Shown in pieces: positions 11,655 to 45,195 of a stretch of 64,000 nt of DNA. The position numbers were made by a program, and so were the translations under genes. Below the pieces are notes generated by a model. That model ran no database searches, was not told where the DNA came from, and saw only the letters and a program-made list of their open reading frames with translations. This DNA comes from an uncultured Thermoleophilia bacterium. Lineage in GTDB: Bacteria; Actinomycetota; Thermoleophilia; UBA2241. Position 1 is the first letter of the stretch; every line of letters begins with the position of its first letter. Location: positions 64,001 to 128,000 of the forward strand of contig CAVQSP010000014.1 in assembly GCA_963715985.1 (NCBI GenBank), given 5' to 3'.

Positions 11655-11706
11655 CTCAGGTACCTCCTGCAATGCGTCGCGAGCGACGCAGGTGTTGGTC
11701 CGGGTG

Positions 11707-12889: not shown

Positions 12890-12992
12890 CTCGGGACCTC
12901 CTGTCGAGCGAACGGGCGTTTGCCCACTACGGCACCGTCCGGAGAGTGGTGGCGCCGGCCGTCGAGATCGGGTGCTGCGACCGCCGACAAGG

Positions 12993-13046
12993 TTTGTCTG
13001 TCCGGACGGATAAATGTATGCTAGCAACCAGGCGGCGCGTTGACAA
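12993..13046 (-). promoter_or_regulatory. Promoter (TTGTCA-17-TAGCAT) with second copy of the 22-bp operator, divergent from tetR
   Basis: tttgtctgtccggacggataaa, followed by shared ctagcaacca. Confidence 0.75.
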
Positions 13047-13080
13047 GTGCCTGTCGTTGGGCCCGTGAAAGGAGGGTGAC

Positions 13081-13755: not shown

Positions 13756-13759
13756 GGGC

Positions 13760-15988: not shown

Positions 15989-16046
15989 TGCGCCACCTCA
16001 CGTTCTGGGACTCGAGCGGCGGCGCCGGAGCGGCCCGCCGCGCTGT

Positions 16047-19726: not shown

Positions 19727-19746
19727 GCTGCGCTCTCCTCGTCGCC

Positions 19747-20550: not shown

Positions 20551-20599
20551 GAGCCGCTCCTGTGTCGTCGGTTGCTTGTCTCGTTTGGCCGCATGCGGT

Positions 20600-24839: not shown

Positions 24840-24892
24840 GCCGGAGATCCTTTCGTCAGTCACTGACCGTCGGGGAGAAGCAGAGTCCGCGC

Positions 24893-26370: not shown

Positions 26371-27995
26371 TCAGATCGCGTCGAACTGCGTGAGGTCGGC
26401 TTCGATCGCGGCTAGCTCCTCGGGCGTACCCTGGATCTTCGGGCCCTTGAACCACTTGCGAGCACCGGCGATCCACCAGATGAAGGCGAAGCCGATGACG
26501 GCCAGCACCACGATGATCGAGTAGTTGAAGTTCTGCCTCGTGATGGGACTGTAAGGCGGCAGCAGGAACACGATGCAGATGAAGATCACGTAGATGATGG
26601 CGATCCAGCCGATCACCATGCTCACCGTCTTGTTCAACACGTAGGGGCCCGGCACGAACGCCTTCGGGTTGATGCGGCGCAGGAACACCGGCGTCAGGTA
26701 GGCGATGTAGAGGCCGATGACGGCGGTGGCCACCACGGCGTTGTAGGCGGTGTAGTTGAACATGTACGGGACGGAGATGATGAACGCGCCGACGGCGCCG
26801 AACCAGGCCGAGCGCACAGGCACGCGACGCTTCTTGCTGACGTGGTGCCAGAACTTGGAGCCCGGCACCGCGCCGTCACGCGAGAACGCGTAGATCATGC
26901 GCGAGTTGGCCGTCACCGACGACATGCCGCAGAAGAACTGCGCCACGATGACGATCACGATGAGCAGCAGGGCGGTGGATCTGCCTGCCGCCGAGATGAA
27001 GGTCACCGCCCAGTTGGGGTACAGCACGGCGAGTTCCGCATAGCTCGTGACCTGGGTCCCCGCGAAGGAGATGGGGTGCGAGAAGTCCGGGATCGCGTAG
27101 CTGATCGCCGACGAGCAGGATGAAGCCGGCGATGAGCGAGACCCAGATGGACCGGACGATGCCCTTGGCCGCCTGGACGTTGGCCGAGATCGTCTCCTCG
27201 GACACGTGGGCCGAGGCGTCGTAGCCGGTGAACGTGTACTGGGCGTTCAGCATGCCGAGAGCGATGACGTAGAGGGGCGCCGTCCACCCCGAGAGCCCCT
27301 TGAACGCGTTCCACCCCTCGCTGCCGAACATGAACGAGGCCGAGTTGTGGGTCGAGCCGCTGGCGGGCGCCCCAGTACAGAAGGACGACGATGATGGCCA
27401 CGCCGATGAGGTGCCAGTAGACCGAGACGTCGTTGAGCAAGGCCACCAGGCGGACGTTGAAGGTGTTCAGCAGGCCCTGCAGGAACAGGATGACGGCGAG
27501 GATGCCGATGATGTGCCCCGGCGAAAGCCAGTACGCCTCGCCGGTGATCTCGCCCAGGAAGGCCGCGACCGAGAACGCGCAGCCGAAGCTGATGCCGGCC
27601 GTGACGGCGACCTGCCCCAGCAGGTTGAACCAGCCGGTGAACCAGGACCACCAGGGCCCGCTCTTGCCCGGCGCCAGCTTGGCCGACCAGTAGTAGAGGC
27701 CGCCGGCCGTCGGGTAGGCCGAGCAGATCTCGGCCATCGACAGGCCGGCGAAGATGACCATCAAGCCGACGAACAGCCAGCCCCAGTTCATGACCGGCGG
27801 GCCGCCGTGGAGCAGGCCGTAGGAGTAGACGGTCAGGCAGCCCGACAGGATGGAGATGATGGTGAAGGAGATGGCGAAGTTGGAGAACCCGCTCATCTTC
27901 CTGTCGAGCTCCTGCGCGTAGCCCATCTCGTGCAATCGTTGTGTGTCTTCGTCCAGCTGCTGGACCGCTGGCGCTACGGACGGTTCATCTGCCAC
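26371..27995 (-). CDS. APC-superfamily (GABA/choline ACT-like) permease; frameshifts
   Basis: MGYAQELDRKMSGFSNFAISF, AEICSAYPTAGGLYYWS, GYDASAHVSEET, SRMIYAFSRDGAVP, WFKGP. Confidence 0.85.
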
Positions 27996-28226: not shown

Positions 28227-30590
28227 TCAGCTCGCGCGCCGGCGCGCCTCCGCGTAGCGCACGATGGCGCGCGCCTGGCTGGCGCCGTCCAGGCCGGCCT
28301 CGGCGAGGACCACCTCGCCCTGGCCGCTGCCGAGGTAGTGGCCTTTGAGATACGGGTGCAGGGTGGCGGCGCGCCCCTCCGCTGAGGTGACCCAGCGCAT
28401 CATGGTCGGTAGCGTGAAGCCGGTGATGCCCATCGCCTCGCGCGCGTGCACGTCGGGGAACAGGTCCGCCTGCTCGGCCTCGCTGAGGCCGTCGAAGAGC
28501 TCGGCGCTGGCCACGTAGTAGACGCGCGCGTCGACGCCTTGCTCGAGGAGCAGCGGCAGCGCCTCCTCCACGAAGGCGTAGGCGACGGCGCTCTCCTGCA
28601 GCACCACGGTGACGTCGGCTTCGCCGGCCGGCGCCCTGAGCAGATACACGCCGGTGACGGCGGCTGCGGCCGGAGCAAGCCCCAGGGCCACGCGGTCGAG
28701 CACCGTCTCGCTCGGCCGTGTGACGAACGGCGCGATGAGCGCCGGCCGTCCGGCGAGCGCCGTGGCCAGCAGCGGCCATACCTCCTGCGGCTCCCACGGC
28801 GTCAGCGTCACGGCAGTGCCGCGAGGGAAGTCCTCCTGGAGCAGCTGCAGTGCCTGCGGGTCGGCGTGAGTGGGGCCGTCCTCACCGGTCTTGAGGCCGG
28901 CGTGAGCACAGACAAGGATCATCGAGTTGTACGGCTCGCCGGTGACGGCCTTACGGGCCTGTGCGCCGATGCAGTGCAGACGCCCGGCGATGTGGCCGAG
29001 CGGTGCCATGAAGGCGCCGTAGGAGCTGCCGACGCCGATCGCGTGGCCGAAGGCCGAGATGCCGGAGAGCACCCCGGCGATGCCGTCCTCGCAGATGCCC
29101 CCGATGGAGAGGAGCCGCGCCTCCGGGTCGCCGACGGCGTTGTAGAAGCCGGGCGGGAAGTCGGCCGCCACCACGTTGACGCTGGTGGATCCGTAGAGGT
29201 CGGCCGAGGCCGTGAGCAGCGCGCCGTTCGAGGCCCTGTTGAGGTAGCGCAGTGCATCGCCGAGAGCACCGCGGATGGTGGTGGACGAGCCGGGCGTCAG
29301 CCGCAGCTCGTCCGGGATCGACCGCTGCGCGGCCGTCGCCGTCTCGTACGCGGCCTGGACGCGCGGCGCGTGCGCACGGGGGTTGCGGCCGCGGGTGTCC
29401 AGATGATCGCCCGCGGCGCGCAGGCGCTCGGCCAGCGCCGCCGCCGCGTCGCCCTCCTGCTGGAGGCGCGCGCGCACGACGCCCAGCGCGGCCCAGAAGC
29501 ACTCCTCACGCACATCAGGGCCGTCGCTCCCGGCACAGCGGAGGTCACCTGTCCCGCAGCTGGGCAGGACAGCGTCGTCGCCTCCGGTGAGGTCCGCCAA
29601 GGCCTCGTAGTAGCCGGGCGAGCAGAGCTTGTGGCCGGCGCCGTGGGAGGCCTTGCCCTCCACCCCGTAGCGCCAGCCCTTGAGCGTGCGGTACACGATG
29701 GCCGTCGGCTGGCTGGTGTCCAGGCTCAAGGCCAGGCGCTGGGCCGCGACGATCTGCTGCAGGTCGAAGCCGTCCGCCACCTCGATGACGTTCCAGTCGT
29801 GCAGGTAGAAGAGCTCGGCCGGCGTCCACTGCACGTAGTCGCCGGGGAGCTCGCCCTCGCGACAGACCCGGTTGCTGTCGATGGACGCCTGGTTCCAGTC
29901 CAGGTGCATGAAGACGTTGCCCAGCGAGGCGGTGCCGGCCGCGGCCAGTGACTCGGCCACGCGGCCGGGCGTAAGGCCGCCCTCGCCCTCCACGATGTGC
30001 ACGCGCGGAGCGTCCGCGCCGTAGCGGTCGCGGGCCCCGAAGGCGAGGCCGATGGAGCTGGCGTCGCCCACGCCGGAGGCTCCCGTCGAGAGTCGCACGA
30101 ACGGCGTGGCCGGCGTGGGGTGCCCGTCCAGCGCCTTGGCGTTGAAACGGCGGAAGAGCGGTGTGGCCGTGATGGGGTTGCGGCGGAAGCCCAGCAGGTC
30201 CTCGAATCGCAGGCGCCGAGCGTCGGCACGGGGCAGCAGCTCGGGTGCGGCCACGCGGGCCACTTCGTCACGCAGGGCCCACATGGCGTACAGGCCCATG
30301 GCTTTGTGGCCGGCCCCGTAGCTCACGAGGTCCGCGTCCTGCCGCTCGGGGTCGTCAAGGCGGTACTCGAGCGCGTCGAACAGGAGGGCGGCCACGAACC
30401 GTCCGGAGGAGATCGACCCGCCGGGGTGCCCCGACGTGGGTACGTAGTTGAAGAGGACGGCGCAGAGGGAGCGGTACAGCAGGTCAAGCGTCTCGAAGGC
30501 AGCGACGTCCGCCGGGGACAGCGGCGCGCCCGCCGTCGAGGCGTCGATCTCGATGGAGACGGCGCGCCTGGGGCCGAAGGGGAGAGTCAC
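28227..30590 (-). CDS. Divergent transketolase-like ThDP enzyme (787 aa)
   Basis: SGHPGGS, GAGHKA, LDGHP, STGASGVG, GEGG..(x)..DWN, SADL, GEDGPTH. Confidence 0.82.
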   Translation of the reverse strand: MTLPFGPRRAVSIEIDASTAGAPLSPADVAAFETLDLLYRSLCAVLFNYVPTSGHPGGSISSGRFVAALLFDALEYRLDDPERQDADLVSYGAGHKAMGLYAMWALRDEVARVAAPELLPRADARRLRFEDLLGFRRNPITATPLFRRFNAKALDGHPTPATPFVRLSTGASGVGDASSIGLAFGARDRYGADAPRVHIVEGEGGLTPGRVAESLAAAGTASLGNVFMHLDWNQASIDSNRVCREGELPGDYVQWTPAELFYLHDWNVIEVADGFDLQQIVAAQRLALSLDTSQPTAIVYRTLKGWRYGVEGKASHGAGHKLCSPGYYEALADLTGGDDAVLPSCGTGDLRCAGSDGPDVREECFWAALGVVRARLQQEGDAAAALAERLRAAGDHLDTRGRNPRAHAPRVQAAYETATAAQRSIPDELRLTPGSSTTIRGALGDALRYLNRASNGALLTASADLYGSTSVNVVAADFPPGFYNAVGDPEARLLSIGGICEDGIAGVLSGISAFGHAIGVGSSYGAFMAPLGHIAGRLHCIGAQARKAVTGEPYNSMILVCAHAGLKTGEDGPTHADPQALQLLQEDFPRGTAVTLTPWEPQEVWPLLATALAGRPALIAPFVTRPSETVLDRVALGLAPAAAAVTGVYLLRAPAGEADVTVVLQESAVAYAFVEEALPLLLEQGVDARVYYVASAELFDGLSEAEQADLFPDVHAREAMGITGFTLPTMMRWVTSAEGRAATLHPYLKGHYLGSGQGEVVLAEAGLDGASQARAIVRYAEARRRAS

Positions 30591-30813: not shown

Positions 30814-31446
30814 TCACTTCCCCAGCAGCTCGTTGATCTTCTTGACCCCGTCGTTGGCGTCCTCGGCGTAGGCGTCGGCGCCGATCTGGTCGGCCCAGCG
30901 CTGCGTGGCGGGGGCGCCGCCGACGACGCACTTGTAGGGCAGGCCCTCCTCCTTGACGCGCTTGATGACCTTCTTCTGCTCCTCCATCGTCGTCGTGAGC
31001 AGGGCGCTCATGCCGATCACGTCGGCGCCGGTCTCGGCGGCCTTGGTAAGGAAGGCCTCGGCGGGCACGTCGCGCCCCAAGTCGTGGACCTCGTAGCCGT
31101 TGGCCTTCAGGTAGGCGATCACGATCGCCTTGCCGATGTCGTGCACGTCGCCCTGCACGGTGCCGATGACGATCACGCCCTTGGCCTCGGCGGCCTCCCC
31201 TTCGAGGGCGGCGTTGGTGACCTCGGTGGCGCCGGCCATGGCGTCGGCGCTCATCATCAGCTCGGGGAGGAAGACCTCGCCGCTCTCGAAGAGCTCGCCG
31301 ACCTCCTGGATGCCCATGACGAAGCCGTTCTGCATGATGTCGGCGGGGCTGATGCCCTCGGCGAGGGCGCGAGCTGCGACCGCTTCGGCCCCGGCGCGGT
31401 CGGCGTCGATGATGGTCTGGGCTGCTTCTTCGTAGATGGTGGCCAT
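30814..31446 (-). CDS. Corrinoid (B12-binding) protein of a methyltransferase system, MtbC/MttC-like
   Basis: Cap domain GELFESGEVFLPELMMSA; GTVQGDVHDIGK (DxHxxG); SALLTTT; VGGA. Confidence 0.93.
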   Translation of the reverse strand: MATIYEEAAQTIIDADRAGAEAVAARALAEGISPADIMQNGFVMGIQEVGELFESGEVFLPELMMSADAMAGATEVTNAALEGEAAEAKGVIVIGTVQGDVHDIGKAIVIAYLKANGYEVHDLGRDVPAEAFLTKAAETGADVIGMSALLTTTMEEQKKVIKRVKEEGLPYKCVVGGAPATQRWADQIGADAYAEDANDGVKKINELLGK

Positions 31447-31552
31447 GCGTGGGGCTCCTTCCTCTCCCATGTCGCGCTCTGATCCCCTCGTCCGTCGACC
31501 GGTGATGGCTGCCGTGGCGCTGATCCGGGGTGCGTGCGTGCGAGTGCAAAAC

Positions 31553-31610
31553 TAGCACGTTCGCGAACGTTATCAAACACACTCGCACTTGACGCGGCGC
31601 CGGTCGAGCC
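31553..31610 (+). promoter_or_regulatory. Copy 1 of a duplicated ~58-bp promoter/operator block
   Basis: tagcacgttcgcgaacgttatcaaacacactcgcacttgacgcggcgccggtcgagcc; near copy at 33102-33159. Confidence 0.7.
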
Positions 31611-31755
31611 CGCGCTGGGTGTTGCTCTTGTTCGCTTCTGTCTGTCACGCAGGCCGCGACCGTCTGAATGGACACTGATAGACTCGAACCGCCGAGTCCC
31701 GCACGACCGGCGGTTCGCGAGCCGCTCAGCTGACCGCTTCATGAAGGAGAGGAAC

Positions 31756-32937
31756 ATGGGTAGTCACGACTGGATGGGCCTGCAGAAGAGCTTCCCCTTC
31801 GTCCTTCCGGGGCGTATCCAATTCGGCCCCGGGGTGTCCCAGACCGTCGGCCAAGAGGCGGCAGCGCTTGGCCACAGGGCGTTGCTCGTGACCGATCCGG
31901 GGGTCGCCGGTGCAGGGCTCGTCGAGCCGATCCAGGGCGAGTTGGAGCGCGCCGGTCTGGAGTGCGCCGTGTTCGCCGAAGTCGAAGCCAATCCGCGCAT
32001 CGCCACCGTCGAGCGGGCGGCCGCCTTCGCCAAGGAGCAGGGCGCGGAGATCGTGGTCGCGCTGGGCGGCGGCAGCGTCATCGACACGGCCAAGATCGTC
32101 TGCGCGATCGCGACGCACGGCGGCGGCGTCCTCGACTACGAGGGGTATGACCTGATCCCCGGCCCTGTCACCCCGCTCATCGCACTGCCGACCACGTCCG
32201 GTACCGGCAGCGAGGTCACGTTCTGGGCCGTCGCCACGGACGTCTCCCGCAACTACAAGCTTGCGGTGAGCAGCGTGCTGCTGGCTCCGAGTCTGGCCCT
32301 GGTCGATCCGTTGCTGACCGTGAGCCTGCCGCCTGCGGTGACCGCGGGCACCGGGTTCGATGCGCTGAGTCACGCCGTCGAGGCGTATACGGCGCGGTGC
32401 AGCAACCCGGTCAGCGATGCGCTGGCACTCTACGCGATCGAGCTCGTGGGGCTGAACCTCGAGCAGGCGGTGCGCGATGGAGCGGACGTGGAGGCGCGAT
32501 GCGGCATGTCTCTGGCCAGCCTGACGGCCGGCATCTCTTTCGGGAATGCCGACACGTCCGCGGCTCACGCGATGGGTGAGGCGCTCGGCGGTCTCTTCGA
32601 CACGCCTCACGGCTTGGCGTGCGCGGCCAGCCTGCCCTACATGACGCGCTTCAACCTGCCGGCGGTCCCTGAGAAGACCGCGCGGATCGGGCAGGCGCTG
32701 GGCCTTCCGACCGCCGGCCTTCCAGTCCAGGAGGCGGCAGAGGCGACCGTAGAAGGTCTCATCGAGCTCGGGAAGCGAGTCGGTGTACCCAGCATACGAA
32801 GCTTCGGCGCCACGGAAGGGGACATCCCGAAGCTGGTCAGCATCGCGATGCTGAACGTCGGCAACGCGGACAACCCGGTCGACGTCGACGAGGCAGTGTT
32901 CACGGAGCTCTTCAAGGAAGCCCTCGCACAGGACTAG
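31756..32937 (+). CDS. Iron-containing alcohol dehydrogenase
   Basis: VEANP, ALGGGSVID, PTTSGTGSEVT, DALSHAVEAY, AHAMG, PHGLA. Confidence 0.93.
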   Translation: MGSHDWMGLQKSFPFVLPGRIQFGPGVSQTVGQEAAALGHRALLVTDPGVAGAGLVEPIQGELERAGLECAVFAEVEANPRIATVERAAAFAKEQGAEIVVALGGGSVIDTAKIVCAIATHGGGVLDYEGYDLIPGPVTPLIALPTTSGTGSEVTFWAVATDVSRNYKLAVSSVLLAPSLALVDPLLTVSLPPAVTAGTGFDALSHAVEAYTARCSNPVSDALALYAIELVGLNLEQAVRDGADVEARCGMSLASLTAGISFGNADTSAAHAMGEALGGLFDTPHGLACAASLPYMTRFNLPAVPEKTARIGQALGLPTAGLPVQEAAEATVEGLIELGKRVGVPSIRSFGATEGDIPKLVSIAMLNVGNADNPVDVDEAVFTELFKEALAQD

Positions 32938-33101
32938 TTCGCGAGCACAGGCGTGCCTCGCGCCTGCACAGTCCCCTCCCGCCGAGACCTACCCGCGGTC
33001 GGCGGTTCGGCGTATAGTCGTTTTGCGCCGCTCAAAGCGGGTGCTCTGCGTCCCGGCTGGGCCGCCGGACCGTCAAGCGTTGCGGCTCAGACGTGCGAGA
33101 T

Positions 33102-33165
33102 TAGCACGTTCTCGCACGATTTCAAACACAGTCGCACTTGACGCCGCGTCCGTCGAGCCTATGAT
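33102..33165 (+). promoter_or_regulatory. Copy 2 of duplicated block with promoter TTGACG-16-TATGAT
   Basis: ttgacg 33138-33143, tatgat 33160-33165. Confidence 0.72.
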
Positions 33166-33496
33166 GACCTTTGTTCACGTGCGATTCTGCGAAACGAGGA
33201 TCGTGTAGGGGGAGAGTGCTCGGACCACGTCCATCGTGTGGCGTTCGTCGCCGGCAGTCGTCTGCGTGCCTGGGAGGCCGGATCCGGGCCTCGCGTGCCG
33301 GGGTGAGCGTTTTGGCGCGCGGCTGCTCGCGATTTACCGTCCCGATGCGAAGCCCCTGTGCGGCTCGGCCGTACGTTCGCGGCGTCGACCCGGCCACTCC
33401 CCGGCCGCGGGACCTCGGTAGGCGCCCCCAGGTGTCGAAAGGAGCGAGGCGACAGATGGAGAGAACGGTGATGAGTGTGGGCGAGGGGAGGCCGAC

Positions 33497-34441
33497 GTGA
33501 GCGTCCGGCTCTTCTTCGCCACGGACGTCCATGGCTCGGAGGTCTGCTGGCGCAAGTTCATCAACTCCGCCAAGCACTACGGCGCCAACGTCCTGATCCT
33601 GGGCGGCGACATGACCGGCAAGGCGGTCATCCCCATCATCGACAACGGGGGCGGCACCTACACGTTCCACATGCAGGACATCCGCCACGATCTCCAGGGC
33701 GCCGAGGCGCTGGCGGCCAATCGCGCGCGATCAGGATCACGGCTACTACCCCGTGGTCATGACGGCCGAGGAGGGGACCGAGTTCACCAGCGACCCCGAC
33801 AAGCTCGAGGAGCTCTTCCACGATCGATGCGCCAGCACTGTCAAGGACTGGGTCGCGTGGGCCGACGAGCGTCTCGAGGGCAGCGGCATGCGTGCATCGT
33901 CTGCCCCGGCAACGACGACCGACCCGACATCGACGGGCTGCTCGCCACGTCATCGCAGATCGAGGTGGGCGAGGGCAACATCGTCGACCTGCCGGACGGG
34001 ATACCAGCTGGCCTCCAGCGGCTACACGAACCTCACGCCCTGGGACACCCGCGGGAAGAGGACGACGGACAAGCTCAAGGCGCGCATCAGGGCATCGTCG
34101 CGCAGGCCACGGCGAGTCCCGAGCATCTGGTGATGGGCCTGCACGCGCCGCCGTACGACACGCAGCTCGACGTGGCGCCGAAGATCGACTGGGAGACGCT
34201 CACGGTGCAGGGCCAGGACTCCGCCCACGTGGGCTCCACCGCCGTCAAGGAGGTGATCGAGCAGGTCCAGCCCATCCTCTCGCTGCACGGGCACATCCAC
34301 GAGAGTCGCGCCGCCATCCGCATCGGGCGCACGCTGGCCGTCAATCCGGGGAGCTCGTACGTCGAGGGCACGCTCTCCGGGTGCGTCATCGAACTCGACG
34401 GCAAGAAGAAGATCAAGCGCTACAGGCTGACCAGCGGGTGA
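33497..34441 (+). CDS. Icc-like metallophosphoesterase (paralog 2); several compensating frameshifts
   Basis: ATDVHGS, GGDMTGK, PGNDD, HAPPYDT, LHGHIHES, NPGSSY. Confidence 0.85.
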   Translation: MSVRLFFATDVHGSEVCWRKFINSAKHYGANVLILGGDMTGKAVIPIIDNGGGTYTFHMQDIRHDLQGAEALAANRARSGSRLLPRGHDGRGGDRVHQRPRQARGALPRSMRQHCQGLGRVGRRASRGQRHACIVCPGNDDRPDIDGLLATSSQIEVGEGNIVDLPDGIPAGLQRLHEPHALGHPREEDDGQAQGAHQGIVAQATASPEHLVMGLHAPPYDTQLDVAPKIDWETLTVQGQDSAHVGSTAVKEVIEQVQPILSLHGHIHESRAAIRIGRTLAVNPGSSYVEGTLSGCVIELDGKKKIKRYRLTSG

Positions 34442-34519
34442 GAGCCGCGGCGCCTGAAGAGCAGGGGGGACGGCGCTGGCGGGCCGTCCGAGGAGTCGGT
34501 ACTGGAGGAGGTTGGGCAT

Positions 34520-36159
34520 ATGGCGACAAATAAGCCCGCCGAACAGACGCTGTTCGTGCGAAAGGCCAGTGGTCTGGTCAAGGGCTGGTCGACTGGGGAC
34601 GGGTTCCGCTACTCGTTCTTCTCGACGAACATGTTCTTGGGGATCTGGGGCTTCCCTACGCCGTGTTCATCCCCGGCGGCAGCGTGTTCTGGCTGCCATC
34701 ATGATCTGTACCTTCGTGATTTCGAATTGTGGTGTACCGGGCCTGATCTCGGCGATGCCACGAGCAGGCGGTGACTACGTGTGGCAGTCACGCATGTTCC
34801 ACAGCTCGGTCGGCTTCGTGTTGGGGCCACCGGCTGGTGGTTCATCCTCTGGCTGTGGATCCCGATCTACGCCGCCCTGGGCGTGAACTCGTTCATCGAG
34901 CCCGATCCTGCGCATCGTCGGCGCGGACGGCGCCGCCGATTGGCTCGCTCACCAAGAACGGCGTCTTCGTCGCCTCGCTGGCGACGATCGCCCTTGCCGA
35001 CCTACCTCGTCGCCATCGGCATGAAGGCCTACGCCAAGTTCCAGAAGTGGGCCCTCTGGATCGGCCTTGGCGGGCTGCGCGGTGGCGGCCATCCTGCTGC
35101 TCGTGACCTCGAAGGCCAGCTTCATCGAGTCGTTCAACCGCGAGATGCTCGACCTGTACGGCGCCAAGGACGCGTACAGGCCACGCGTCGAGAGCGCCGG
35201 CGAGGGCATGCCGTCGTCCATGTTCGCCGGCAACGTCTGAGGACACGTTCAAGCTCATCCCGTTCATGGCCTTCTGGCTCCTGTGGCCGGTGTGGGGCGC
35301 CACGCTGTACGGCGAGGTCCGCGGCGCCAAGGACTTCCGCAAGAACATCTACCAGATGGCCGGCGGCCTCCTGGCGGCTGGTCGCCATCGTCATCGTCTT
35401 CCTGATCCTCGTGACGAAGACGATGGGCTGGACACTTCTTCGAGGCCACCGCCAACGGCTACATGGGTTCCCTGTACGCGTACATCGACCCCGCGACGCT
35501 GCCGGCCGGCAGCGACTACCTCTCGCCGACGGCGATGATCTCCTGGATCGTCGAGCAACAACGCCTTCCAGGTCGTCCTCATCGCGGTGATATCGCTGCT
35601 GGTGTTCGGCTGGTGGGGCACCGTGTTCCTCTCGTCGACGCGCATGATCTTCGCCTCGGCCTTCGACCGCATCCTGCCGGAGCGCGTCGCGAGGGTGACG
35701 TCGGGCGGCGTGCCGGTCAACGCGCTGCTGCTCATGGCGATCCCGTCGGTCATCGTCTCCGCCTTCTACGCCTACCAGCCCTCGTTCGTGCAGCTCACCT
35801 ACGACGCCACGCTGGTGATCGCCGTCATGTTCTTCGTCACAGGTCTCGCCTTCATGGTGATGCCGTGGCGCGCCAAGTCGATCTGGGACAACTCGGCGAT
35901 TCCCAAGATGAAGATCGCCGGCATCCCGATCCTGGCGATCGCAGCGCTCATCTACGCGATCTTCATGGGGTTCAACCTCTGGCTCTGGTTCTACGACAAG
36001 ACCAACACCTACGGCATCGGCTACAAGAACAAGAACTCCATGATCTTCATGGGCATCCTGTACGTCGCCGCCATCGTGATCTGGATCGTCGCCTGGGCCG
36101 TGCGCAAGCGCCAGGGCATGGAGCTCGAGGCTGTGGCCAAGGAGATCCCGGTCGAGTGA
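34520..36159 (+). CDS. APC-family amine permease, paralog of 17022-18658; many frameshifts
   Basis: FVRKASGLVK, AMPRAGGDYVWQSR, YGEVRGA, AFDRILP, C-terminal KEIPVE. Confidence 0.8.
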
Positions 36160-36262
36160 TCGCCGCAGGCGGATCACCGTCGCGAGGTGACGGAGTCGCT
36201 GAGCGACAATGACTCGTCGAACAGGGGAACGATCGCGAGATTGATTCAGCAGACGCAGGCGC

Positions 36263-36297
36263 CGGCGGCGGCCCGGTGATCTTCCGGGCCGCCGCCG
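36263..36297 (+). terminator. Strong hairpin between permease and mtbB
   Basis: cggcggcggcccgg-tgatctt-ccgggccgccgccg. Confidence 0.55.
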
Positions 36298-36405
36298 TCT
36301 CTGCTCCCGAGTGGGCGTCGCGAAGATGCAGGCGCTCCGCATGAGATCCTCGTGGAGAGGAGCGTTCTACGTGACAACGCCGACGGCAGAGGAGGCCGCG
36401 CTTTC

Positions 36406-37806
36406 ATGAAGATCCTCACAAGAATGGGTGACAGCTCGAACGTCGAGCTGACACGCGACGAGCTGCGCCAGGAGTTCATCGAGGGCTCCGAGCTCGCCGC
36501 GAAGAAGGCCAAGATCCCCGTCCTCACCGAGAACGAGATCGACTACCTCGTCGACATGTTCGCGGCGCCCACGCGTATCTGGGGCGTGCAGCGCGGTAAC
36601 GAGGTCGTCATGACCAAGGACGGCTGCGTCAACGCCCTCAACTCCTCGCGCATGTCGAGCGGCGTGGTCGCTCCTGTCAACCGCGAGGTGGGCGTGCGCC
36701 TCTTCGAGTCGATGCTCGGCTTCGACTCCATGGAGGTCGCGCACAACGACTACTCCGTGAAGCCGCAGCGCTTCCTCAAGGCGCTCGAGCAGCTCCACAT
36801 GGAGATCCTCCAGGAAGTCACCATCTTCCCGCTGTTCTACGGCTTCATGCCCAACCTGGGCCTGTACTACCGGCCGGACGGCTCGTTCGAGAACCCATCG
36901 GACCTCATGCCGCTGGGCAAGATCCCGGAGGCGCGCCGCACGCAGGAAGAAGCGCTCGAGAAGTGCATGGAAGACTGCATGGAGATGAGCGACTGCATGC
37001 TCGAGATGGGCGCCGACGGCATCGACTACGACACCACCGCATCCACCGGCGACGCCGAGTTCCTGGCCGTGCTCAAGACCACCGAGCACGTGGCCGGCGA
37101 GACGGGTCTGCCCGTCGAGGTCGGCATGTCGGCCGAGATGGTGCTCGGCTTCCACGGCGAGCTGGAGTACAACGGCAAGCGGCTCGCCGGCATGTGGCCG
37201 CACCAGCAGCTGCAGGTCTGCGAGGAGGCCGGCGTCGCCATCTTCGGCCCGGTCAGCAACACCAACACCAGGAAGACCGTGCCGTGGAACCTCGCCCGCG
37301 CCCTCACCTTCGTGAAGGCCTGCACCGAGATCGCCAAGATCCCGGTGCACCCCAACGTCGGCATGGGCGTCGGCGGCGTGCCGATGTTCGAGACCCCCGC
37401 CGTCGACGTCGTGACCCGCTGCAGCGCGGCCATGATCGAGATCGGCCACGCCGACGGGTTGTAGGTCGGTACGGGCGACCCAGCCGGCATGCACATGGCG
37501 CATCTGCTGGCCTCGTCGATGGGTGGCATCCGGGCTACCGGAGATCTGGTGGCCCGCATGCAGCTCCAGAAGATGAGGATCCACGAAGCCAAGAAGTACG
37601 TGGCCGACAAGTTGCACGTGACGCCGCTCGACCTGTCCGATCCGACGATGATGCGAGGGCTCAGGGAAGAGCTCGACATCGGCGTTGTGACCGGCGTCCC
37701 GGGCGTCGCCAAGGGCATGGCCGCCAAGGTGCGCATCGCCGAGCTCCTCGACATCGAGATCAACAGCGTGGAGCAGTTCAAGAAGAAGACCGGTCTGCAC
37801 ATGTGA
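36406..37806 (+). CDS. mtbB: Dimethylamine:corrinoid methyltransferase MtbB with in-frame amber (pyrrolysine) codon 353 at 37462-37464; 466 aa
   Basis: [49 protein letters not shown], then ADGL-TAG-VGTGDP (Methanosarcina VDGI-O-IGVGDP), continuing in frame through [12 protein letters not shown] and LREELDIG to TGA; AGAGGAGG RBS. Confidence 0.93.
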
Positions 37807-37818
37807 GCCGGCGGCTGG

Positions 37819-37892
37819 CGGCCGCGGCCTTCGGGTCGCGGCCGTCCGGCTCCAGCAGATCACGAGCCCCGGCCGCCTGAGGCGGTCGGGGC
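37819..37892 (+). terminator. Two hairpins after mtbB (first with cUUCGg loop)
   Basis: cggccgcggcc-ttcg-ggtcgcggccg; gccccggccgcc-tga-ggcggtcggggc. Confidence 0.6.
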
Positions 37893-37909
37893 CCGTTGGC
37901 TTCTGACGC

Positions 37910-38031
37910 GCGCCCCTTGGGCGCGGGGCTTCCGCCGGGTGCGTGCGCCCCTTGGGCGCGGGGCCTCCGCCGGGTGCGTGCGCCCCTTGGGCGCGGGGCC
38001 TCTCGCCGGGTGCATGCGCCCCTTGGGCGCG
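37910..38031. repeat. About 3.5 tandem copies of a 35-36 nt palindrome-containing unit
   Basis: gcgccccttgggcgcggggcYtccgccgggtgcRt at 37910, 37945, 37980, partial at 38016. Confidence 0.9.
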
Positions 38032-38171
38032 CAGCGCGCCTCGACCGCCTCGCCTGCCCCGACCGCCGCCGCTCAGTCTCGCGCCCGTGTGTCCGCGGGC
38101 ATGTTCCGATCCGCGCTTTCAACTGGGCGTACGTTTGGACGTGTGGTTGCCTGAAACCGTCGTCGGGAACA

Positions 38172-38210
38172 TGCCGGCGCCTGCCGGCGCCTGCCGGCGC
38201 CTGCCGGCGG
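38172..38210. repeat. 10-nt tandem repeat, about 4 copies
   Basis: (tgccggcgcc)x3 + tgccggcgg. Confidence 0.85.
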
Positions 38211-38290
38211 CATCTCGCGCTGAGCGTGCCGTCGGCTGCCAGGGGCGGCCGCGAACGGCGTGCGCCTGCCGGCGCCGAGGCGTGGAAGCC

Positions 38291-39217
38291 TCACACGGCC
38301 TTGAGCCACTCCTCGTAGTCGCGGTGGGCGGCGTTGGCCTGCATGCGGTGGATGCGGTCCATGCCGTACCCGTAGAAGTCGAAGTCGAGCTTGGAGAGCG
38401 TGGCCTGGATCATCGCCCAGATGCTCCACCAGAGGTCGGCGACCAGCTTGTGGAGCATCATGCGCGCGTAGCGGTGCTCGTCCATGCCGCCGCAGTAGGC
38501 GGTGAGCACGGCCGTCTCCTCGTCCTCGGTGAGCGGGGTCTCCACGCAGAAGTCGCCGAGGTCGAAGTACGGGTCGCACATGCCGCCGTACTCCCAGTCG
38601 ATGATCCACATCTTGCCGTCCGGGGCGAGGATGAAGTTCTCGCTGAGCAGGTCGTTGTGACACGCCGTGAAGGCCGGCTGGTCGCGCTTCATCGCTTCTT
38701 CGATGCGCGCGCCCTGCTCGAGCATCCAGTCGGTCTCCTCGGGCCGCGGGGCGCCCACGTCCTGCGCCATGCTCAGGTACTGGCGGATCATGTCGAAGAC
38801 GTGGATCTCGTTGTCGAACACCGCCTTGTCGTGATACGTGCGCATGGCGGCGACGATCTTCTCCAGGCGGTCGGGGTGGCCGGCGATGCTCTCGGGGTGC
38901 ATGGTCTCGCCGGCGATGAACGGGACCACCGTGCAGTCGCCGGGCTGGATGACGTGCAGGAGCGGCGGCGTGACGCCGGCCGCCGCCGCCGCCCGGTGGT
39001 TGTTGAGCTCGCGGGTGCGGTCGATGAAGGTCTCGGTGCCCTCGCCGGGGATGCGCAGCACGAACTTGCCGGCGCCCGGGCTGCCGTCGGCGCCGTCGAC
39101 GGTCACCACGTAGTTGCGGTTGGTGATCCCGCCGCCGAGCTCCTCACAGACGATCTCCCTGCCCTGCCACTCGCCGATCCTCGCGATGACGTCATCGACG
39201 CTGATGCGCTCTGCCAT
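38291..39217 (-). CDS. Choline/ethanolamine kinase-family phosphotransferase
   Basis: LGGGITNRNY, VLRIPG, IDR..E, CHNDLLSENF, IIDWEY, DPYFDLG. Confidence 0.88.
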   Translation of the reverse strand: MAERISVDDVIARIGEWQGREIVCEELGGGITNRNYVVTVDGADGSPGAGKFVLRIPGEGTETFIDRTRELNNHRAAAAAGVTPPLLHVIQPGDCTVVPFIAGETMHPESIAGHPDRLEKIVAAMRTYHDKAVFDNEIHVFDMIRQYLSMAQDVGAPRPEETDWMLEQGARIEEAMKRDQPAFTACHNDLLSENFILAPDGKMWIIDWEYGGMCDPYFDLGDFCVETPLTEDEETAVLTAYCGGMDEHRYARMMLHKLVADLWWSIWAMIQATLSKLDFDFYGYGMDRIHRMQANAAHRDYEEWLKAV

Positions 39218-39338
39218 GTGTCTTCCTCACTCTGGTGTGTACGACTGCGACGAAACGGCCGGGGCCCTCGCGCTCTGGGGGGAGCATACGCGAGGGGCCC
39301 CGGCCGCGTCAGGGGGGACTGCGATCAGTGGACCCGTG

Positions 39339-40721
39339 TCAGAGGGCCGGGACCTCGAAGCCCATCCCGGCGAGGTCGGCGCGGACGTCGTCCATCGCCT
39401 TCTGGTACTCGCTGTTCACGATGGCCTTCGTCTTGGGGTCGTAGACCTCCTGGAAGGTCATGCCCTTGTCCGGGTCCTTCAGCTTGTCGCCGAAGAGCGG
39501 GAAGATCTTCTGGGCGATCGGCTCCGCCTCGGCGCGCGTGAGCTTGGCCGCCGCGAGGCCCATCTCGGCGTGGAACTTGTGGTCGTCCGGCACCAGCGAG
39601 TCGGACTGCACGGCCATGGCCGGGTGCCCGGAGAAGACGTTGCCGCCGGAGGTGACGATGGCGAGCAGGTAGCAGGCCATCTCGTAGTGGTACTGCTTGG
39701 TGCCCGAGCCGCCGCCCAGGTACGGCAGGTTGACCATCGGGTAGCCCATGTTGCGGCCGATGGCGGCGTTGCTCATGGCGATGGCCCAGATGAGCGGCTT
39801 GGTGGACGAGAGGTGCAGCTTGCTGTGCAGCGGCGCGTTGTAGTGGTAGGTGCCGCGGAAGACCAGGTTGCCCATGATCATGTAGGCCGTGGCGGTGACG
39901 GCCACGCCCTCGGCGCCGCCCGCGTACCCGCCGAAGAGCGGGGTGGAGGTGGAGCCGATGTTGGCGCTGATGCTGTTGTAGAAGGCCACCTTCTGCAGCG
40001 CCTCGTACCCGACGACCATCTCGGAGAGGAAGTCGATGAGGAAGCCGTCGCTCGGGCGCAGGCCGAAGTCCGGGTAGCTGGCCGCGAACATCGAGGCCGG
40101 CTGAGAGGCGGCGGAGATGCCGTTGATGATCGGGAGGCCTGAGCGGCCGGAGCGGCGGATGCCCTCACGCGCGAGACGCACCGTCTTGCAGGCGGCGAGG
40201 ATCTCCTGCGGCGAGCGCACGCGGGAGTCCTTGCCGCGCAGGTGCAGGATGCTGGGCACGCTCACCGAGTCGACGATGTTGAAGGACGCCATCTTCTCGA
40301 CGGTGTCCATGAACACTTGTTCGTCGGTGGTGTAGATGCCGCCGCCCACGTGCACCCACGGGCGGTCGTCAGTGGTGTCCGGGCGCCGCCCGTACATGGT
40401 CTTGCGCTCGCGGCCCTCGCCGAAGGTGGCGCCGTTGGGGGCCTGCGAGCAGGCGAGCAGGATCTCGTCGCGCGTGAACTGCATCACGCGGTTGGTCTCC
40501 GGGCAATACGCCCCGGCCTCGGCGATGAGGTCCACGGCCGCCTGGAAGACGCGGTCGGTGAGGTCGTCGTCGGTGTTGATGATGGTCGCCTTGTCCCACT
40601 TGACCGCGTGGCGCGCGATCACCTCGGCGAGGGTGGGCACGTAGCGCTTCATGTAGTAGTCGGTCTCGGACGTGAGCGGACCGGTCTCTGCGCGGTCGAA
40701 CACCTCGATCAGGTCGATCAT
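39339..40721 (-). CDS. Monomethylamine methyltransferase (MtmB) family protein, non-pyrrolysine
   Basis: FDRAETGP, DDDLTDRVFQAA, YCPETNRV, SP.EILA, FGGYAGGAEG, GMTFQEVYD; 460 aa with no amber. Confidence 0.88.
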   Translation of the reverse strand: MIDLIEVFDRAETGPLTSETDYYMKRYVPTLAEVIARHAVKWDKATIINTDDDLTDRVFQAAVDLIAEAGAYCPETNRVMQFTRDEILLACSQAPNGATFGEGRERKTMYGRRPDTTDDRPWVHVGGGIYTTDEQVFMDTVEKMASFNIVDSVSVPSILHLRGKDSRVRSPQEILAACKTVRLAREGIRRSGRSGLPIINGISAASQPASMFAASYPDFGLRPSDGFLIDFLSEMVVGYEALQKVAFYNSISANIGSTSTPLFGGYAGGAEGVAVTATAYMIMGNLVFRGTYHYNAPLHSKLHLSSTKPLIWAIAMSNAAIGRNMGYPMVNLPYLGGGSGTKQYHYEMACYLLAIVTSGGNVFSGHPAMAVQSDSLVPDDHKFHAEMGLAAAKLTRAEAEPIAQKIFPLFGDKLKDPDKGMTFQEVYDPKTKAIVNSEYQKAMDDVRADLAGMGFEVPAL

Positions 40722-40769
40722 TGTCTGGCTCCTGTGCTGGCGGGTTCGCGGGTCGGCTGACGGTCGCGG

Positions 40770-41417
40770 TCAGGAGACCAGCTTGCTGGCGAGGGTGACC
40801 GCATCGTAGGCGTTGGCGGCCCAGCCGTCGGCGCCGATGGATGCGGCCCACTCCTCGGTCGTGGCACCGCCACCGACCATGACCTTGTACTTGTCGCGCG
40901 TGCCCTGGTCCTTGAGTGCGTCGATGACGTCACGCTGACCGATGAGCGTGGTGGTGAGCAGCGCCGACATGGCGATGATGTCGGCGCCGACCTCGTTGGC
41001 CTTGTCGACGAACTTGAACAGGTCCACGTCGATGCCGAGATCGTGGACCTCGTAGCCCGACGTCTCGAAGAGCAGCTTGAGGATGTTCTTGCCGATCGAG
41101 TGCAGGTCGCCCTTGACGGTGCCCAGCACCACGATGCCCTTCTTGGGGCCGCTGCCGCCGGCTTCCTTGATCAGCGGCTCGAGAACGCCCATCGCCGCCT
41201 GGAAGGCGAGCGCCGACTGCATCAGCTCGGGCAGGAAGATCTCCTCGTCCTCGAACTGCTGGCCGATGACGTTCAGGCCGGGCAGCAGGCCCTGGTCGAT
41301 GATCTCCTGCGCGCTCATGCCGTCGGCGAGCGCCTTGTCGACGGACTCGAGCACGGCGTCCTGGTCCTGGTCGACGACGGCCTGCTTCAGCTGGTCATGC
41401 ATCGCTTCGTTTCCCAT
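40770..41417 (-). CDS. Corrinoid protein (MtmC/MttC-like)
   Basis: EIFLPELMQSA, GTVKGDLHSIGK, SALLTTT, MVGGG. Confidence 0.93.
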   Translation of the reverse strand: MGNEAMHDQLKQAVVDQDQDAVLESVDKALADGMSAQEIIDQGLLPGLNVIGQQFEDEEIFLPELMQSALAFQAAMGVLEPLIKEAGGSGPKKGIVVLGTVKGDLHSIGKNILKLLFETSGYEVHDLGIDVDLFKFVDKANEVGADIIAMSALLTTTLIGQRDVIDALKDQGTRDKYKVMVGGGATTEEWAASIGADGWAANAYDAVTLASKLVS

Positions 41418-41477
41418 GAGTGACTCCCCTCGTCTGCTTGCGTGTCTGTGAGTTCGTGCGTGCGCGTGCCCGCGGGC

Positions 41478-42932
41478 CTACGCAGTGACCTCGGTGTCGG
41501 TCCACACGGCGTCGCCGGCCACGAGGCCGGGGAACTCCGCGCGGATGCGCTCGTCCAGTTCGGCCTCCCACACGGCCGGGTTGGGCTGGGACAGGATGCC
41601 GCGGGCCACGGCGCGCGCGCGGCTCTGGGCGTCCGGCTTGCCGGCCGCCTCCCACTGCGCGCGCATGCCGCGGTCGGCGACCTTGGGGAAGAGCGCCGTG
41701 GTCTTCATCAGCGACTTGGTGTGGCGGCTCTTCATGTAGTCGCCGCCGGGGCCCACTTCGGCGATGACATCCAGGGCGAGGTTCTCCTCGCTGTAGTCCA
41801 GGCCGCGGACGACGCGCTTGTTCATCAGCGCGATCTCGTCGTCCACCACGGCCTTGCCGAAGTCGAAGGCCATGAGAGAGCTGAACAGGCCGCCCATGTT
41901 GAGCAGCGTCGCGCCGGCCAGCACCGAGGCCATCGTGTTCATGCCGGTCTCGTAGCCGGACTGGGCGTCGTTGCTGTGCGCGTTGGTGAGGCCGATGTAG
42001 CCACCCGTGGGCACGTGGTAGAAGTGCCCGAGCTGGGCCTGCGCCATGAAGAGGACGCCGCTCTCGATGGCGCCGGGCGCGTAGGCGCCGCTGCGCATAT
42101 CGGCGACGGTGGGCAGGCTGGCGTAGATCAGCGGCGTGCCCTCCTTGACCATCTGCTGGAACACGGAGATGGCGAGGAACTCGGCGTTGCCGACCACAAG
42201 GGTGCCCATGAGGGTCATCGGCGAGGTGAGGCCGGCGTTGGGCACCACGGTGGTGTACACCGGCAGGCCCTCGCCGGTGAGGTACATGACGGCCTCGGTG
42301 GAGTCCACGTCCATCGTGAGCGGGCTCACCATCGGGCAGTAGTGATGGTTGATGCAGGGGCGCTCGCGGTAGGCGTCCTTGCCGCCGGCGATGAGCTCGC
42401 CGAGCTTGAGGACCTGGTGCAGGTCGTCCATGTTGGGCGTGTTGCTGCGTACCGGCTTCAGGCAGTTCTTGAGAGCCGGGTAGAAGCGGCTCAGGCTGAA
42501 CTGCCCGACGGGGGCGTCGTCGGCCAGCGTGGAGATGGAGAAGATGTCGAAGCCCTTGAGCTCGTTGATGAGGTGGGCGATGTTGGCGATGTCGGTGGAC
42601 GTGGCGCGCCGTTCGACGCCGGTGACCGGGTCCACCACGTTGGGCGCGGAGCTGCCGGTGACGACCACGGGGCCGCCGTCGGGGATGGTGCGGTCGAACT
42701 GCGGGTCGCGGCCGCGGAACGTGAAGCGCGGCGGCACGGCCCGCATGTAGCGGTCGACGATCTCCGGCGAGAACTTGACGAGGCCCTCGTCCGATACGGT
42801 GCAGCCGTGGGCCTTGAAGACGTCGCGTGCCTTTGGGTGGTGCGCGAGAATGCCCACGTTCTCGAGCACCCAGAGCGACGCCTCGTGGACGCGTGCCACC
42901 TGCTCTGTGGTGAGCAACTCTGCGTACTTCAT
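41478..42932 (-). CDS. MttB/MtgB superfamily methyltransferase, non-pyrrolysine
   Basis: VHEASLWVLENVG, VSPL, AGLTSPMTLMGT, DMRSG, GLTNAHSNDAQSGYE (Leu at Pyl site), VGPGGDY. Confidence 0.9.
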   Translation of the reverse strand: MKYAELLTTEQVARVHEASLWVLENVGILAHHPKARDVFKAHGCTVSDEGLVKFSPEIVDRYMRAVPPRFTFRGRDPQFDRTIPDGGPVVVTGSSAPNVVDPVTGVERRATSTDIANIAHLINELKGFDIFSISTLADDAPVGQFSLSRFYPALKNCLKPVRSNTPNMDDLHQVLKLGELIAGGKDAYRERPCINHHYCPMVSPLTMDVDSTEAVMYLTGEGLPVYTTVVPNAGLTSPMTLMGTLVVGNAEFLAISVFQQMVKEGTPLIYASLPTVADMRSGAYAPGAIESGVLFMAQAQLGHFYHVPTGGYIGLTNAHSNDAQSGYETGMNTMASVLAGATLLNMGGLFSSLMAFDFGKAVVDDEIALMNKRVVRGLDYSEENLALDVIAEVGPGGDYMKSRHTKSLMKTTALFPKVADRGMRAQWEAAGKPDAQSRARAVARGILSQPNPAVWEAELDERIRAEFPGLVAGDAVWTDTEVTA

Positions 42933-43119: not shown

Positions 43120-43902
43120 TCATGCGGAGACCACCCGCAGGCCGCGGCGCAGCATCTCGTCGCGCACGTCCTCGTCCACGTCGTCGACGACGACCGTCTG
43201 CACGTCGTCGAGGCCGCAGATGACGAAGTCGCCCACGGCGCCGAGCTTGCTGCGGTCGGCGAGCACGATGACCTCGCCGCGCGTCTGGCGGATCATGGCG
43301 CGCTCCACGCCGGCGAGGCCGATGCTCGCCGTGGTCACGCCCTCCTCGAGGCTGAGGCCGTCCGCTCCGAGGATGAACCGCGAGGCGTGGAAGCTGCCCA
43401 CGGCCTCGATGGCCATGGGCCCCTCGAGGGTGTTGCTGTGCGGCCGGAAGACGCCGCCGAGCAGGATGACCTCGAGCGCCGAGTCCTGCGCGGACGTGAG
43501 CGCGCCCACGTTGTGGGTGACGATGCGCGCGTGGACCTGCGTGTCGACGTGCGCGAGCACCTGGGTCGCGGTGGTGCCGGACCCCAGGAACACGGTCTCG
43601 CCGGGGAGGATCATGGCCGCGGCGGCGCGGGCGATGCGGTCCTTCTCGGCCGTGTGGGTGCGCACGTTGGTCACGTAGCGGGGCTCCTCCACGATGTGCT
43701 GCTTCAGGATAGCGCCGCCGTGGGTGCGCGAGAGGAGTCCGTCGTTTTCGAGCCGCTCGAGGTCGCGGCGGATGGTCATCTCCGAGACGCCGAGGACCTC
43801 GCTGAGGGACGAGACGCGCACGCCGCGTTGCTGGGCGAGGATCTCAAGGATCCGCCCCTGGCGCTCGGCGGGAAACATCTCGCGCGTGTCGGGCGCTGAC
43901 AC
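43120..43902 (-). CDS. DeoR/GlpR-family regulator (paralog 3)
   Basis: GVSEMTIRRDL, RTHGGA, EKDRIA, GSGTT, LADRSK; closely similar to 16047-16841. Confidence 0.92.
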   Translation of the reverse strand: MSAPDTREMFPAERQGRILEILAQQRGVRVSSLSEVLGVSEMTIRRDLERLENDGLLSRTHGGAILKQHIVEEPRYVTNVRTHTAEKDRIARAAAAMILPGETVFLGSGTTATQVLAHVDTQVHARIVTHNVGALTSAQDSALEVILLGGVFRPHSNTLEGPMAIEAVGSFHASRFILGADGLSLEEGVTTASIGLAGVERAMIRQTRGEVIVLADRSKLGAVGDFVICGLDDVQTVVVDDVDEDVRDEMLRRGLRVVSA

Positions 43903-45191: not shown

Positions 45192-45195
45192 CTCG

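Follow-up and report, generated by a model that had tools for sequence, protein, structure and literature searches.

A 64,000-nucleotide stretch of an uncultured Thermoleophilia genome (hereafter the window; G000:C14:64001-128000, where G000 is the genome, C its contigs, G353 and G336 relatives and L fetched loci) was found to hold a conserved gene cluster in which methyltransferases of all three methylamine families, one of them of the pyrrolysine (Pyl) type, are accompanied by two corrinoid proteins, two kinases, an aminotransferase, an atypical transaldolase-family aldolase and a transketolase. In our preferred reading, which we hold tentatively and at a little under an even chance, the cluster would encode a full three-step demethylation of choline together with assimilation of the backbone into sugar phosphates. 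That the substrate belongs to the choline series in some form, whether under this reading or under the rival of a partial demethylation, appears rather probable. Substrate, step order, partners, every single reaction and co-expression are inferred throughout. A preliminary description of the window had reported a Pyl-MtbB, amber-free MtmB and MttB homologues and two DxHxxG corrinoid proteins within 12.1 kb (30814-42932), and all five were confirmed in place; its boundaries needed correction, as they include an accessory iron-containing alcohol dehydrogenase (Fe-ADH) and omit the MthK-like kinase, the aminotransferase, the transaldolase-like gene and the transketolase (14.8-27.9 kb). It is the kinases together with these aminotransferase, aldolase and transketolase genes, which had gone unnoticed, that indicate a choline-type amino alcohol. 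The genes that carry the argument are the following, in window coordinates:

14800..15997 (lower end approximate), minus strand: MthK-like kinase of the APH family, frameshifted in the assembly, with nine short MthK motifs in order
21635..23653, minus strand: transketolase (TIGR00232 894 bits, above cut-off)
23755..24842, minus strand: HisC-like pyridoxal-phosphate aminotransferase, frameshifted in the assembly, extra to the true hisC at C4:41194
24893..26094, minus strand: atypical transaldolase-family aldolase, frameshifted in the assembly (PF00923; alignment to 3R5E)
30814..31470, minus strand: corrinoid protein CorA (TIGR02370 above cut-off; DxHxxG motif)
36406..37806, plus strand: Pyl-MtbB, 466 aa (TIGR02368, PF09505, in-frame TAG)
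37462..37561, plus strand: match to PYLIS_2, the mtbB pyrrolysine insertion sequence (Rfam RF02509, 63.2 bits; gathering 36)
38291..39217, minus strand: LicA-like choline/ethanolamine kinase (PF01633 110 bits; alignment to 4R77)
39339..40721, minus strand: non-Pyl MtmB-family methyltransferase, 460 aa (PF05369 225 bits)
40770..41417, minus strand: corrinoid protein CorB, between MttB and MtmB (PF02607 and PF02310; DxHxxG motif)
41478..42932, minus strand: non-Pyl MttB-family methyltransferase, 484 aa (PF06253 288 bits)
43120..43902, minus strand: DeoR-family regulator heading MttB-CorB-MtmB-kinase

A synteny search, as proposed in the preliminary description, revealed that the gene set is co-conserved in relatives and larger than noted there. 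Across 64 GTDB loci fetched with the window MtmB (some genomes occurring twice), the genes usually run DeoR, kinase, MttB, CorB, MtmB, kinase, phosphoesterase, permease and MtbB on one strand. MttB, CorB and DeoR were each present in 48 and the first kinase in 43 of the 49 loci with 4 kb of upstream sequence; the 38 loci with 6.5 kb downstream contained MtbB in 27, the second kinase and the phosphoesterase in 31 each and the aldolase in 9. G353 combines everything in one co-directional run (DeoR-kinase-MttB-Cor-MtmB-kinase-...-MtbB-transaldolase-HisC-transketolase), and G336 shows a compact co-directional run without MtbB, its MtbB lying on another contig. The window holds a rearranged version, with phosphoesterase-permease-MtbB reversed and the first kinase at 14.8-16.0 kb, and MtbB lies there on the other strand than MttB-CorB-MtmB, which rules out a common transcript. 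Among 53 congeneric genomes, MtmB and the MthK-like kinase were found in the same 42, the aldolase in 40, MttB and the HisC-like gene in 39 each and the MtbB orthologue (at least 81% identity) likewise in 39 among the matches listed, 111 weaker ones standing outside this count. The same 10 of the 53 lack all six genes, and 8 of these are at least 87% complete. Six of the ten carry pylSn, which is present in 48 of 54 genomes of the genus, and six carry other MtbB paralogues; this MtbB orthologue tracks the cluster, not Pyl as such.

The core is also kept, at 54-72% identity, in low-GC, Desulfobacterota-like loci. Orthologues at 65-72% are proteins named Deltaproteobacteria, Syntrophales or Desulfobacteraceae, and those at about 56% Spirochaetota. 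In 32 such distant loci, taken from 80 metagenome loci fetched with MtmB, we found CorB in 30, the window MttB clade in 9, a divergent MttB in 7, a methylcorrinoid:tetrahydrofolate methyltransferase (MT2) in 7 and MtbB in none; the aldolase, the HisC-like gene and an alanine dehydrogenase occur in 5 each, the transketolase in 4, a PhnS2-like binding protein (below cut-off) in 7 and the first kinase in 2. A GcvT/FAD dimethylglycine-dehydrogenase-like gene is present in 16 of them. Flavoenzymes of the dimethylglycine dehydrogenase type use tertiary or secondary amines as substrates, the same class that Pyl enzymes serve; nothing close to this gene is encoded in the window's genome (best match 24.7%). 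That an enzyme for non-quaternary amines stands where MtbB is missing is our main argument for placing Pyl-MtbB at a late step. A kinase-M23-class III aminotransferase fusion (PRK06148) was also seen behind the transketolase in three distant loci (L140:13986-17078, L189); fusions of this type are amino-alcohol kinase/phospho-lyases.

MtbB itself reached 497.9 bits against TIGR02368 (cut-off 369.1) and 608 bits against PF09505. Its single in-frame TAG (37462-37464) stands at the Pyl column, where 47 of 47 orthologue matches carry a stop, and would by inference be read as pyrrolysine. The genome encodes tRNA-Pyl (C13:555126), with pylB, C, D and Sc around it, and pylSn; PylC, PylD, PylSc and PylSn scored above their cut-offs, and PylB fell short (304.8 bits, cut-off 348.2) because the gene is split. 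Both tRNA-Pyl and tRNA-Sec are encoded, and TAG is the terminal stop of 521 of about 2680 well-scored genes. Score, TAG position, PYLIS_2 and complete pyl genes are shared with the Pyl-MtbB/MtbC dimethylamine system. The window enzyme differs in being bacterial, in being one of 11 paralogues and in lying among kinases, a permease and a phosphoesterase, and it may act on a substituted secondary amine. A search for a solved MtbB structure found none.

The MtmB homologue is full-length (460 aa) and has Asn at the column of Pyl202 in 1L2Q, as do 140 of 140 aligned orthologue matches; its predicted fold aligned to the MtmB structure with a TM-score of 0.84, the model being unreliable at 203-265. 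A profile search gave two tight clusters (at 50%) of 838-909 bits, the next cluster scoring 464, two trees placed the window clade far from Pyl-MtmB, and a draw of 300 other Actinomycetota genomes contained no member of it at 1e-100. Close relatives of the window MtmB are titled as Thermoleophilia or Actinomycetota metagenome-assembled genomes. According to the available part of PMC13044021, the one characterised non-Pyl MtmB, MtqB of Methanococcoides methylutens Q3c, demethylates choline and tetramethylammonium. It resembles the window enzyme in being a full-length non-Pyl MtmB with an adjacent corrinoid gene in a cell that has Pyl enzymes for later steps; it is, in contrast, archaeal, linked to coenzyme M and needs no kinase, and its clade lies near the Pyl-MtmBs by report, the MtqB sequence not being part of our trees. 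The supplements of that paper, as far as available, contain none of four accessions sought and no Thermoleophilia.

In the MttB homologue, Leu occupies the Pyl column of 7XCL, and the fold matches 7XCL, 2QNE and 9YCE at Z values of about 35 (34.8 to 9YCE). MtgB of Desulfitobacterium hafniense (9YCE; available part of PMC13080624) has the same fold and is the best solved sequence match, yet its Y97, R312, H348 and F356 are replaced by S94, G310, N345 and L353, the same replacements being seen in 94-102 orthologue matches (Gly310, the Arg312 equivalent, in 99 of 100). Because all four betaine-binding residues of MtgB are replaced, the enzyme is not an MtgB; it appears to form a subfamily of its own, with near-invariant H196, H197 and C199, and is not clearly an MthB. 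Members of this clade are held by Desulfitibacter alkalitolerans and a Sporomusa sp., which the available text of PMC12155760 names as mthK/mthB carriers; we treat this as a lead only.

Both corrinoid proteins have B12-binding domains and a DxHxxG motif (DVHDIG in CorA, DLHSIG in CorB). CorB, which adjoins MtmB in 48 of the 49 loci with 4 kb upstream and in 30 of the 32 distant ones, is likely the partner of MttB and MtmB. A DNA copy of CorA, 97.9% identical, lies at C13:558297-558950 inside the pyl region beside tRNA-Pyl, and the next closest paralogues of CorA stand behind Pyl-MtbB and Pyl-MtmB genes; for these two reasons CorA is probably the partner of the Pyl enzyme. The duplicate also points to recent duplication or gene conversion. 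MttB ends in a TAG, and its frame continues through an open 60-nt spacer into CorB; Pyl read-through would thus make a fusion (40770-42932). In-frame MttB-CorB spacers were counted for 27 of 42 distinct TAG spacers as against 8 of 37 TGA spacers. We did not adopt the fusion, because the spacer is variable, a single clade accounts for most in-frame cases, and the stop is TAA in near-identical contigs.

In sequence, both kinases are similar to proven choline kinases. The MthK-like protein shows nine short motifs in the same order as the MthK printed in Fig. S5 of PMC12155760 (about a quarter of the positions identical, by eye), and in most relatives its gene lies directly upstream of MttB (same locus in 43 of 49), the distance in the window being 25 kb. 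MthK of Eubacterium limosum is a proven choline kinase, and its MthB demethylates phosphocholine once (available part of PMC12155760). In the LicA-like kinase, T32, D189, L191, Y210, E226, W264, W267 and Y284 correspond to T29, D176, V178, Y197, E213, W251, W254 and Y268 of LicA, seven of eight being identical; the eight LicA choline-site residues are those named in the accessible text of PMC4364537, and they are conserved over 79 matches, the last position being Tyr or Trp.

HisC acts on an amino-alcohol O-phosphate, and phosphoethanolamine is the smallest such compound. Alignment of the aldolase to 3R5E revealed a retained Schiff-base Lys and retained phosphate-binding residues, with Gln for the catalytic Glu and Met for Phe in 120 of 120 homologues (3322 homologues at 1e-30); for these residues we presume the position labels of TalB. 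The enzyme falls outside the classical transaldolases, which combine Lys with Glu and Phe, and, by sequence alignment, outside the fructose-6-phosphate aldolases (FSA), in that Gln is present and Met stands at the Tyr-equivalent column, FSA pairing Gln59 with Tyr131 (PMC13259622, available part). Relatives of the aldolase on a Shinella plasmid (44%) lie inside the operon of a thiamine-diphosphate (ThDP) dehydrogenase complex, together with a gene named phosphoglycolate phosphatase; this is suggestive, but was not used as support.

The preliminary description had seen no MT2 and no RamA-type activator gene in the window, which our searches bore out (PF00809, 4 genome matches; PF14574, 2; none in the window), and had suggested looking for them and for Wood-Ljungdahl genes elsewhere, where all were found. 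Genes with a RACo domain, that is RamA-like activators, lie at C11:149 kb and C7:11 kb, AcsE-like MT2 genes at C11:151 kb and C13:415 kb and Fhs at C13:521 kb; an acs/CODH (carbon monoxide dehydrogenase) cluster spans C11:141-152 kb, its gene names being presumptive, assigned from the translations. A MtrH/MtgA-type MT2 was not found in the genome (PF02007, no match), nor, at 88.8% completeness, were EutB or CutC above cut-off.

Under the preferred reading, choline would be taken up and phosphorylated by the products of the cluster, which include two choline-type kinases. The amber-free MtmB with CorB would demethylate the quaternary amine first, the amber-free MttB would act next, on dimethylethanolamine phosphate (a tertiary amine), and Pyl-MtbB, paired with CorA, would act last, on N-methylethanolamine phosphate, a secondary amine analogous to dimethylamine; the order of MtmB and MttB could be reversed, since the kinase-MttB adjacency mirrors mthK-mthB. 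Methyl groups would pass to tetrahydrofolate and the Wood-Ljungdahl pathway via the AcsE-like MT2 encoded elsewhere. The HisC-like enzyme would convert phosphoethanolamine to glycolaldehyde phosphate by transamination, from which atypical transaldolase and transketolase would form pentose or hexose phosphates. The stepwise relay with a single Pyl step on a substrate more complex than trimethylamine, as first proposed, fits the co-conservation and the MT2, activator and Wood-Ljungdahl genes elsewhere. Its premise that non-Pyl MttB enzymes act on quaternary amines may fail here, the MtgB residues being replaced.

By analogy, the cluster may work like an extended MthK/MthB system. The E. limosum MthK/MthB/MthC/MthA system (available part of PMC12155760) likewise has an MthK-family kinase by a non-Pyl MttB and a corrinoid protein, and directs methyl groups to tetrahydrofolate and the Wood-Ljungdahl pathway. 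It removes one methyl group and releases dimethylethanolamine, whereas three removals are proposed here; the window cluster further differs in the two extra methyltransferase families, the second kinase and the aminotransferase, atypical transaldolase and transketolase co-conserved with them, in having its MT2 elsewhere in the genome (seven of the 32 distant loci contain one) and in an MttB without Arg312.

Several points weigh against this reading. The MttB lacks Arg312, which is conserved in MthB and in all other characterised non-Pyl MttBs according to the available part of PMC13080624, and MtqB is reported to branch near the Pyl-MtmBs (PMC13044021, in part), from which the window MtmB clade is distant. 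The best profile match of the MthK-like kinase is homoserine kinase, though weak, that of the LicA-like kinase in NCBIfam is GntI, below cut-off, and the residues shared with LicA may be common to the whole family. In the aldolase, the acid-base pair is that of neither the transaldolases nor FSA, the phosphoesterases and nucleotidyltransferase-like genes have no role in the scheme, and MtbB is present in just 27 of the 38 loci with sufficient downstream sequence and lies on the opposite strand in the window. Finally, the congeneric genomes are kin and thus not independent tests, and the distant loci are partly redundant and mostly short.

Two alternatives are both unlikely in our judgement, and to a like degree. 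In the first, the substrate could be a longer N-methylated amino-polyol or amino-sugar, for instance a methylated aminopentanetetrol lipid head group; after phosphorylation, demethylation and transamination, the resulting ketose or aldose phosphate would feed directly into aldolase and transketolase. Three DeoR regulators, transketolase, atypical transaldolase and the HisC-like enzyme would suit sugar phosphates, the MttB pocket is unlike that of all characterised members, and the PhnS2-like binding protein of the distant loci, below cut-off as it is, fits as well. Yet both kinases resemble proven choline kinases, and neither a polyol dehydrogenase nor an epimerase is a constant member of the cluster.

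The second of these is a one- or two-step demethylation of choline or phosphocholine, as by MthK/MthB or MtqB, beside a separate dimethylamine enzyme and separate sugar-phosphate genes. It would agree with E. limosum, which takes off one methyl only (PMC12155760, available part), with an MtbB that scores like an ordinary dimethylamine enzyme, has 10 paralogues in the genome and is missing from 11 of the 38 loci with 6.5 kb downstream and from the 32 distant ones, and with the transaldolase-HisC-transketolase genes lying 25-35 kb off in many relatives. This separation is, however, at odds with the MtbB orthologue tracking the cluster rather than Pyl as such, and with transaldolase, HisC and transketolase genes standing beside Cor-MtmB in distant low-GC loci.

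We consider it very unlikely that choline is oxidised to glycine betaine and that the relay runs from betaine through dimethylglycine and sarcosine to glycine. The window Fe-ADH has the choline dehydrogenase GbsB as its best match, below cut-off, dimethylglycine-dehydrogenase-like genes occur in half of the distant loci (16 of 32), a GcvT-SHMT (serine hydroxymethyltransferase) fusion is found near some relatives, and stepwise betaine demethylation was proposed for strain DCMF (PMC9768040, available part); but all four betaine-binding residues of MtgB are replaced, Fe-ADH occurs in 2 of 144 loci, and kinases, aldolase and transketolase would be left unexplained. Chance assembly of neighbours in a genome crowded with methyltransferases (78 MtxB loci in 4.35 Mb, and a gene order in the window rearranged against most relatives) is largely refuted by synteny and has very little probability left, since MttB and CorB accompany MtmB in 48 of 49 loci, the genes are present or absent together across the genus, and low-GC loci retain the core at 54-72% identity.

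The 78 loci comprise 60 MttB (10 with a stop at the Pyl column), 11 MtbB (all 11 with a stop) and 7 MtmB (2 with a stop), and with such numbers two-family neighbours are common in the genome. All three families come within 12 kb at one further place only (C14:690-698 kb), where all three carry a stop at the Pyl column, so the mixed Pyl/non-Pyl set is unique to the window within the genome; its conservation in relatives raises it above chance.

The remaining genes of the cluster are:

16047..16811, minus strand: DeoR-family regulator (PF00455 and PF08220)
17022..18658, minus strand: third APC-family permease, frameshifted (intact in relatives; indels missing from short-read contigs)
18734..19735, minus strand: second metallophosphoesterase, frameshifted (comparison with relatives)
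19747..20565, minus strand: nucleotidyltransferase-like protein (ESM Atlas 0.98 to nucleotidyltransferase clusters; no Pfam match)
20600..21364, minus strand: DeoR-family regulator (similarity to the two other DeoR genes)
26371..27947, minus strand: APC-family permease, TIGR00907-like, frameshifted in the assembly
28227..30590, minus strand: divergent transketolase-like ThDP enzyme, accessory here (weak PF00456/PF02779)
31756..32937, plus strand: Fe-ADH, accessory (best NCBIfam match GbsB, 368 bits; cut-off 550)
33497..34441, plus strand: calcineurin-like metallophosphoesterase (weak PF14582; kept beside permease and MtbB in relatives)
34520..36159, plus strand: APC-family permease, frameshifted in the assembly (tblastn to an intact relative; PF13520 in the relative)

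Fe-ADH is found at 0 of 64 GTDB and 2 of 80 metagenome loci, and the query is missing from the GTDB low-identity matches too. The permease-metallophosphoesterase-(nucleotidyltransferase-like) module has three copies in the genome (17022-20565, 33497-36159 and C13:530146-533660), and Atlas relatives of the nucleotidyltransferase-like protein are mostly Chloroflexota. Relatives' copies of the divergent transketolase-like gene usually adjoin a GcvT-SHMT fusion; at L071:11874-16960 the gene lies near that fusion, a glyoxylate/hydroxypyruvate reductase and a MOFRL glycerate kinase. The cluster is bordered by cytochrome bd-like genes (44172-46569, minus strand) and a tmRNA with the tag AENNSLALAA (47432-47791, plus strand). 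The group at 6995-14776, which from the translations we take to be agmatine-deiminase-like, carbamate-kinase-like, antiporter, carbamoyltransferase-like and HDAC-family genes, is linked to the cluster in several relatives too.

The host genome (4.35 Mb, about 70% GC, 88.8% complete, 7.3% contaminated) shows scattered single- or two-base frameshifts in the MthK-like kinase, HisC-like, transaldolase-like and permease genes. These were taken as assembly errors, since the indels are missing from near-identical short-read contigs (which at the permease at 34520..36159 differ by single-base indels) and the genes are intact in relatives; a pseudogene reading was rejected on the same grounds. Wetland metagenomes hold DNA near-identical to the window. 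A run search for RNA data returned DNA runs that contain the sequence, and RNA runs with only a small share of it; one metatranscriptome gave contigs of about 80-115 letters over transketolase-HisC-transaldolase, which indicate neither this organism nor co-transcription. Promoter and terminator scans of the region stayed near chance level.

Demethylation of choline primed by a kinase is already known, and so, separately, is a non-Pyl MtmB active on choline. Expression of Pyl-mttB/mtbB in Stordalen Mire Actinobacteriota was briefly reported and assigned to tri- and dimethylamine (bioRxiv 10.1101/2023.07.09.548291), the available part giving neither a gene cluster nor a choline route. Our literature search, whose coverage left out most subscription papers, returned no description of this cluster or of a phosphoethanolamine-transaminase route. 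What could be new is a common anaerobic choline pathway of wetland Thermoleophilia in which the three families act in turn, with a Pyl enzyme on N-methylethanolamine phosphate, an MttB with a new His-His-Cys pocket on a tertiary amine, a phosphoethanolamine transaminase and a third type of transaldolase-family aldolase that take the two-carbon skeleton into metabolism, and no release of trimethylamine; in all its parts together, this is doubtful.

The Pyl enzymes known so far have mono-, di- or trimethylamine as their assigned substrates, and the corrinoid routes known for choline end after one methyl group. The cluster offers named candidates for Pyl enzymes on substituted amines, for the roles of a widespread non-Pyl MtmB clade and of an Arg-less MttB clade, and for an oxygen-free completion of demethylated choline. 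It is present in about three quarters of the searched genomes of a wetland genus and, if the reading is true, would act as a sink for choline, avoiding trimethylamine and so bypassing methylotrophic methanogens.

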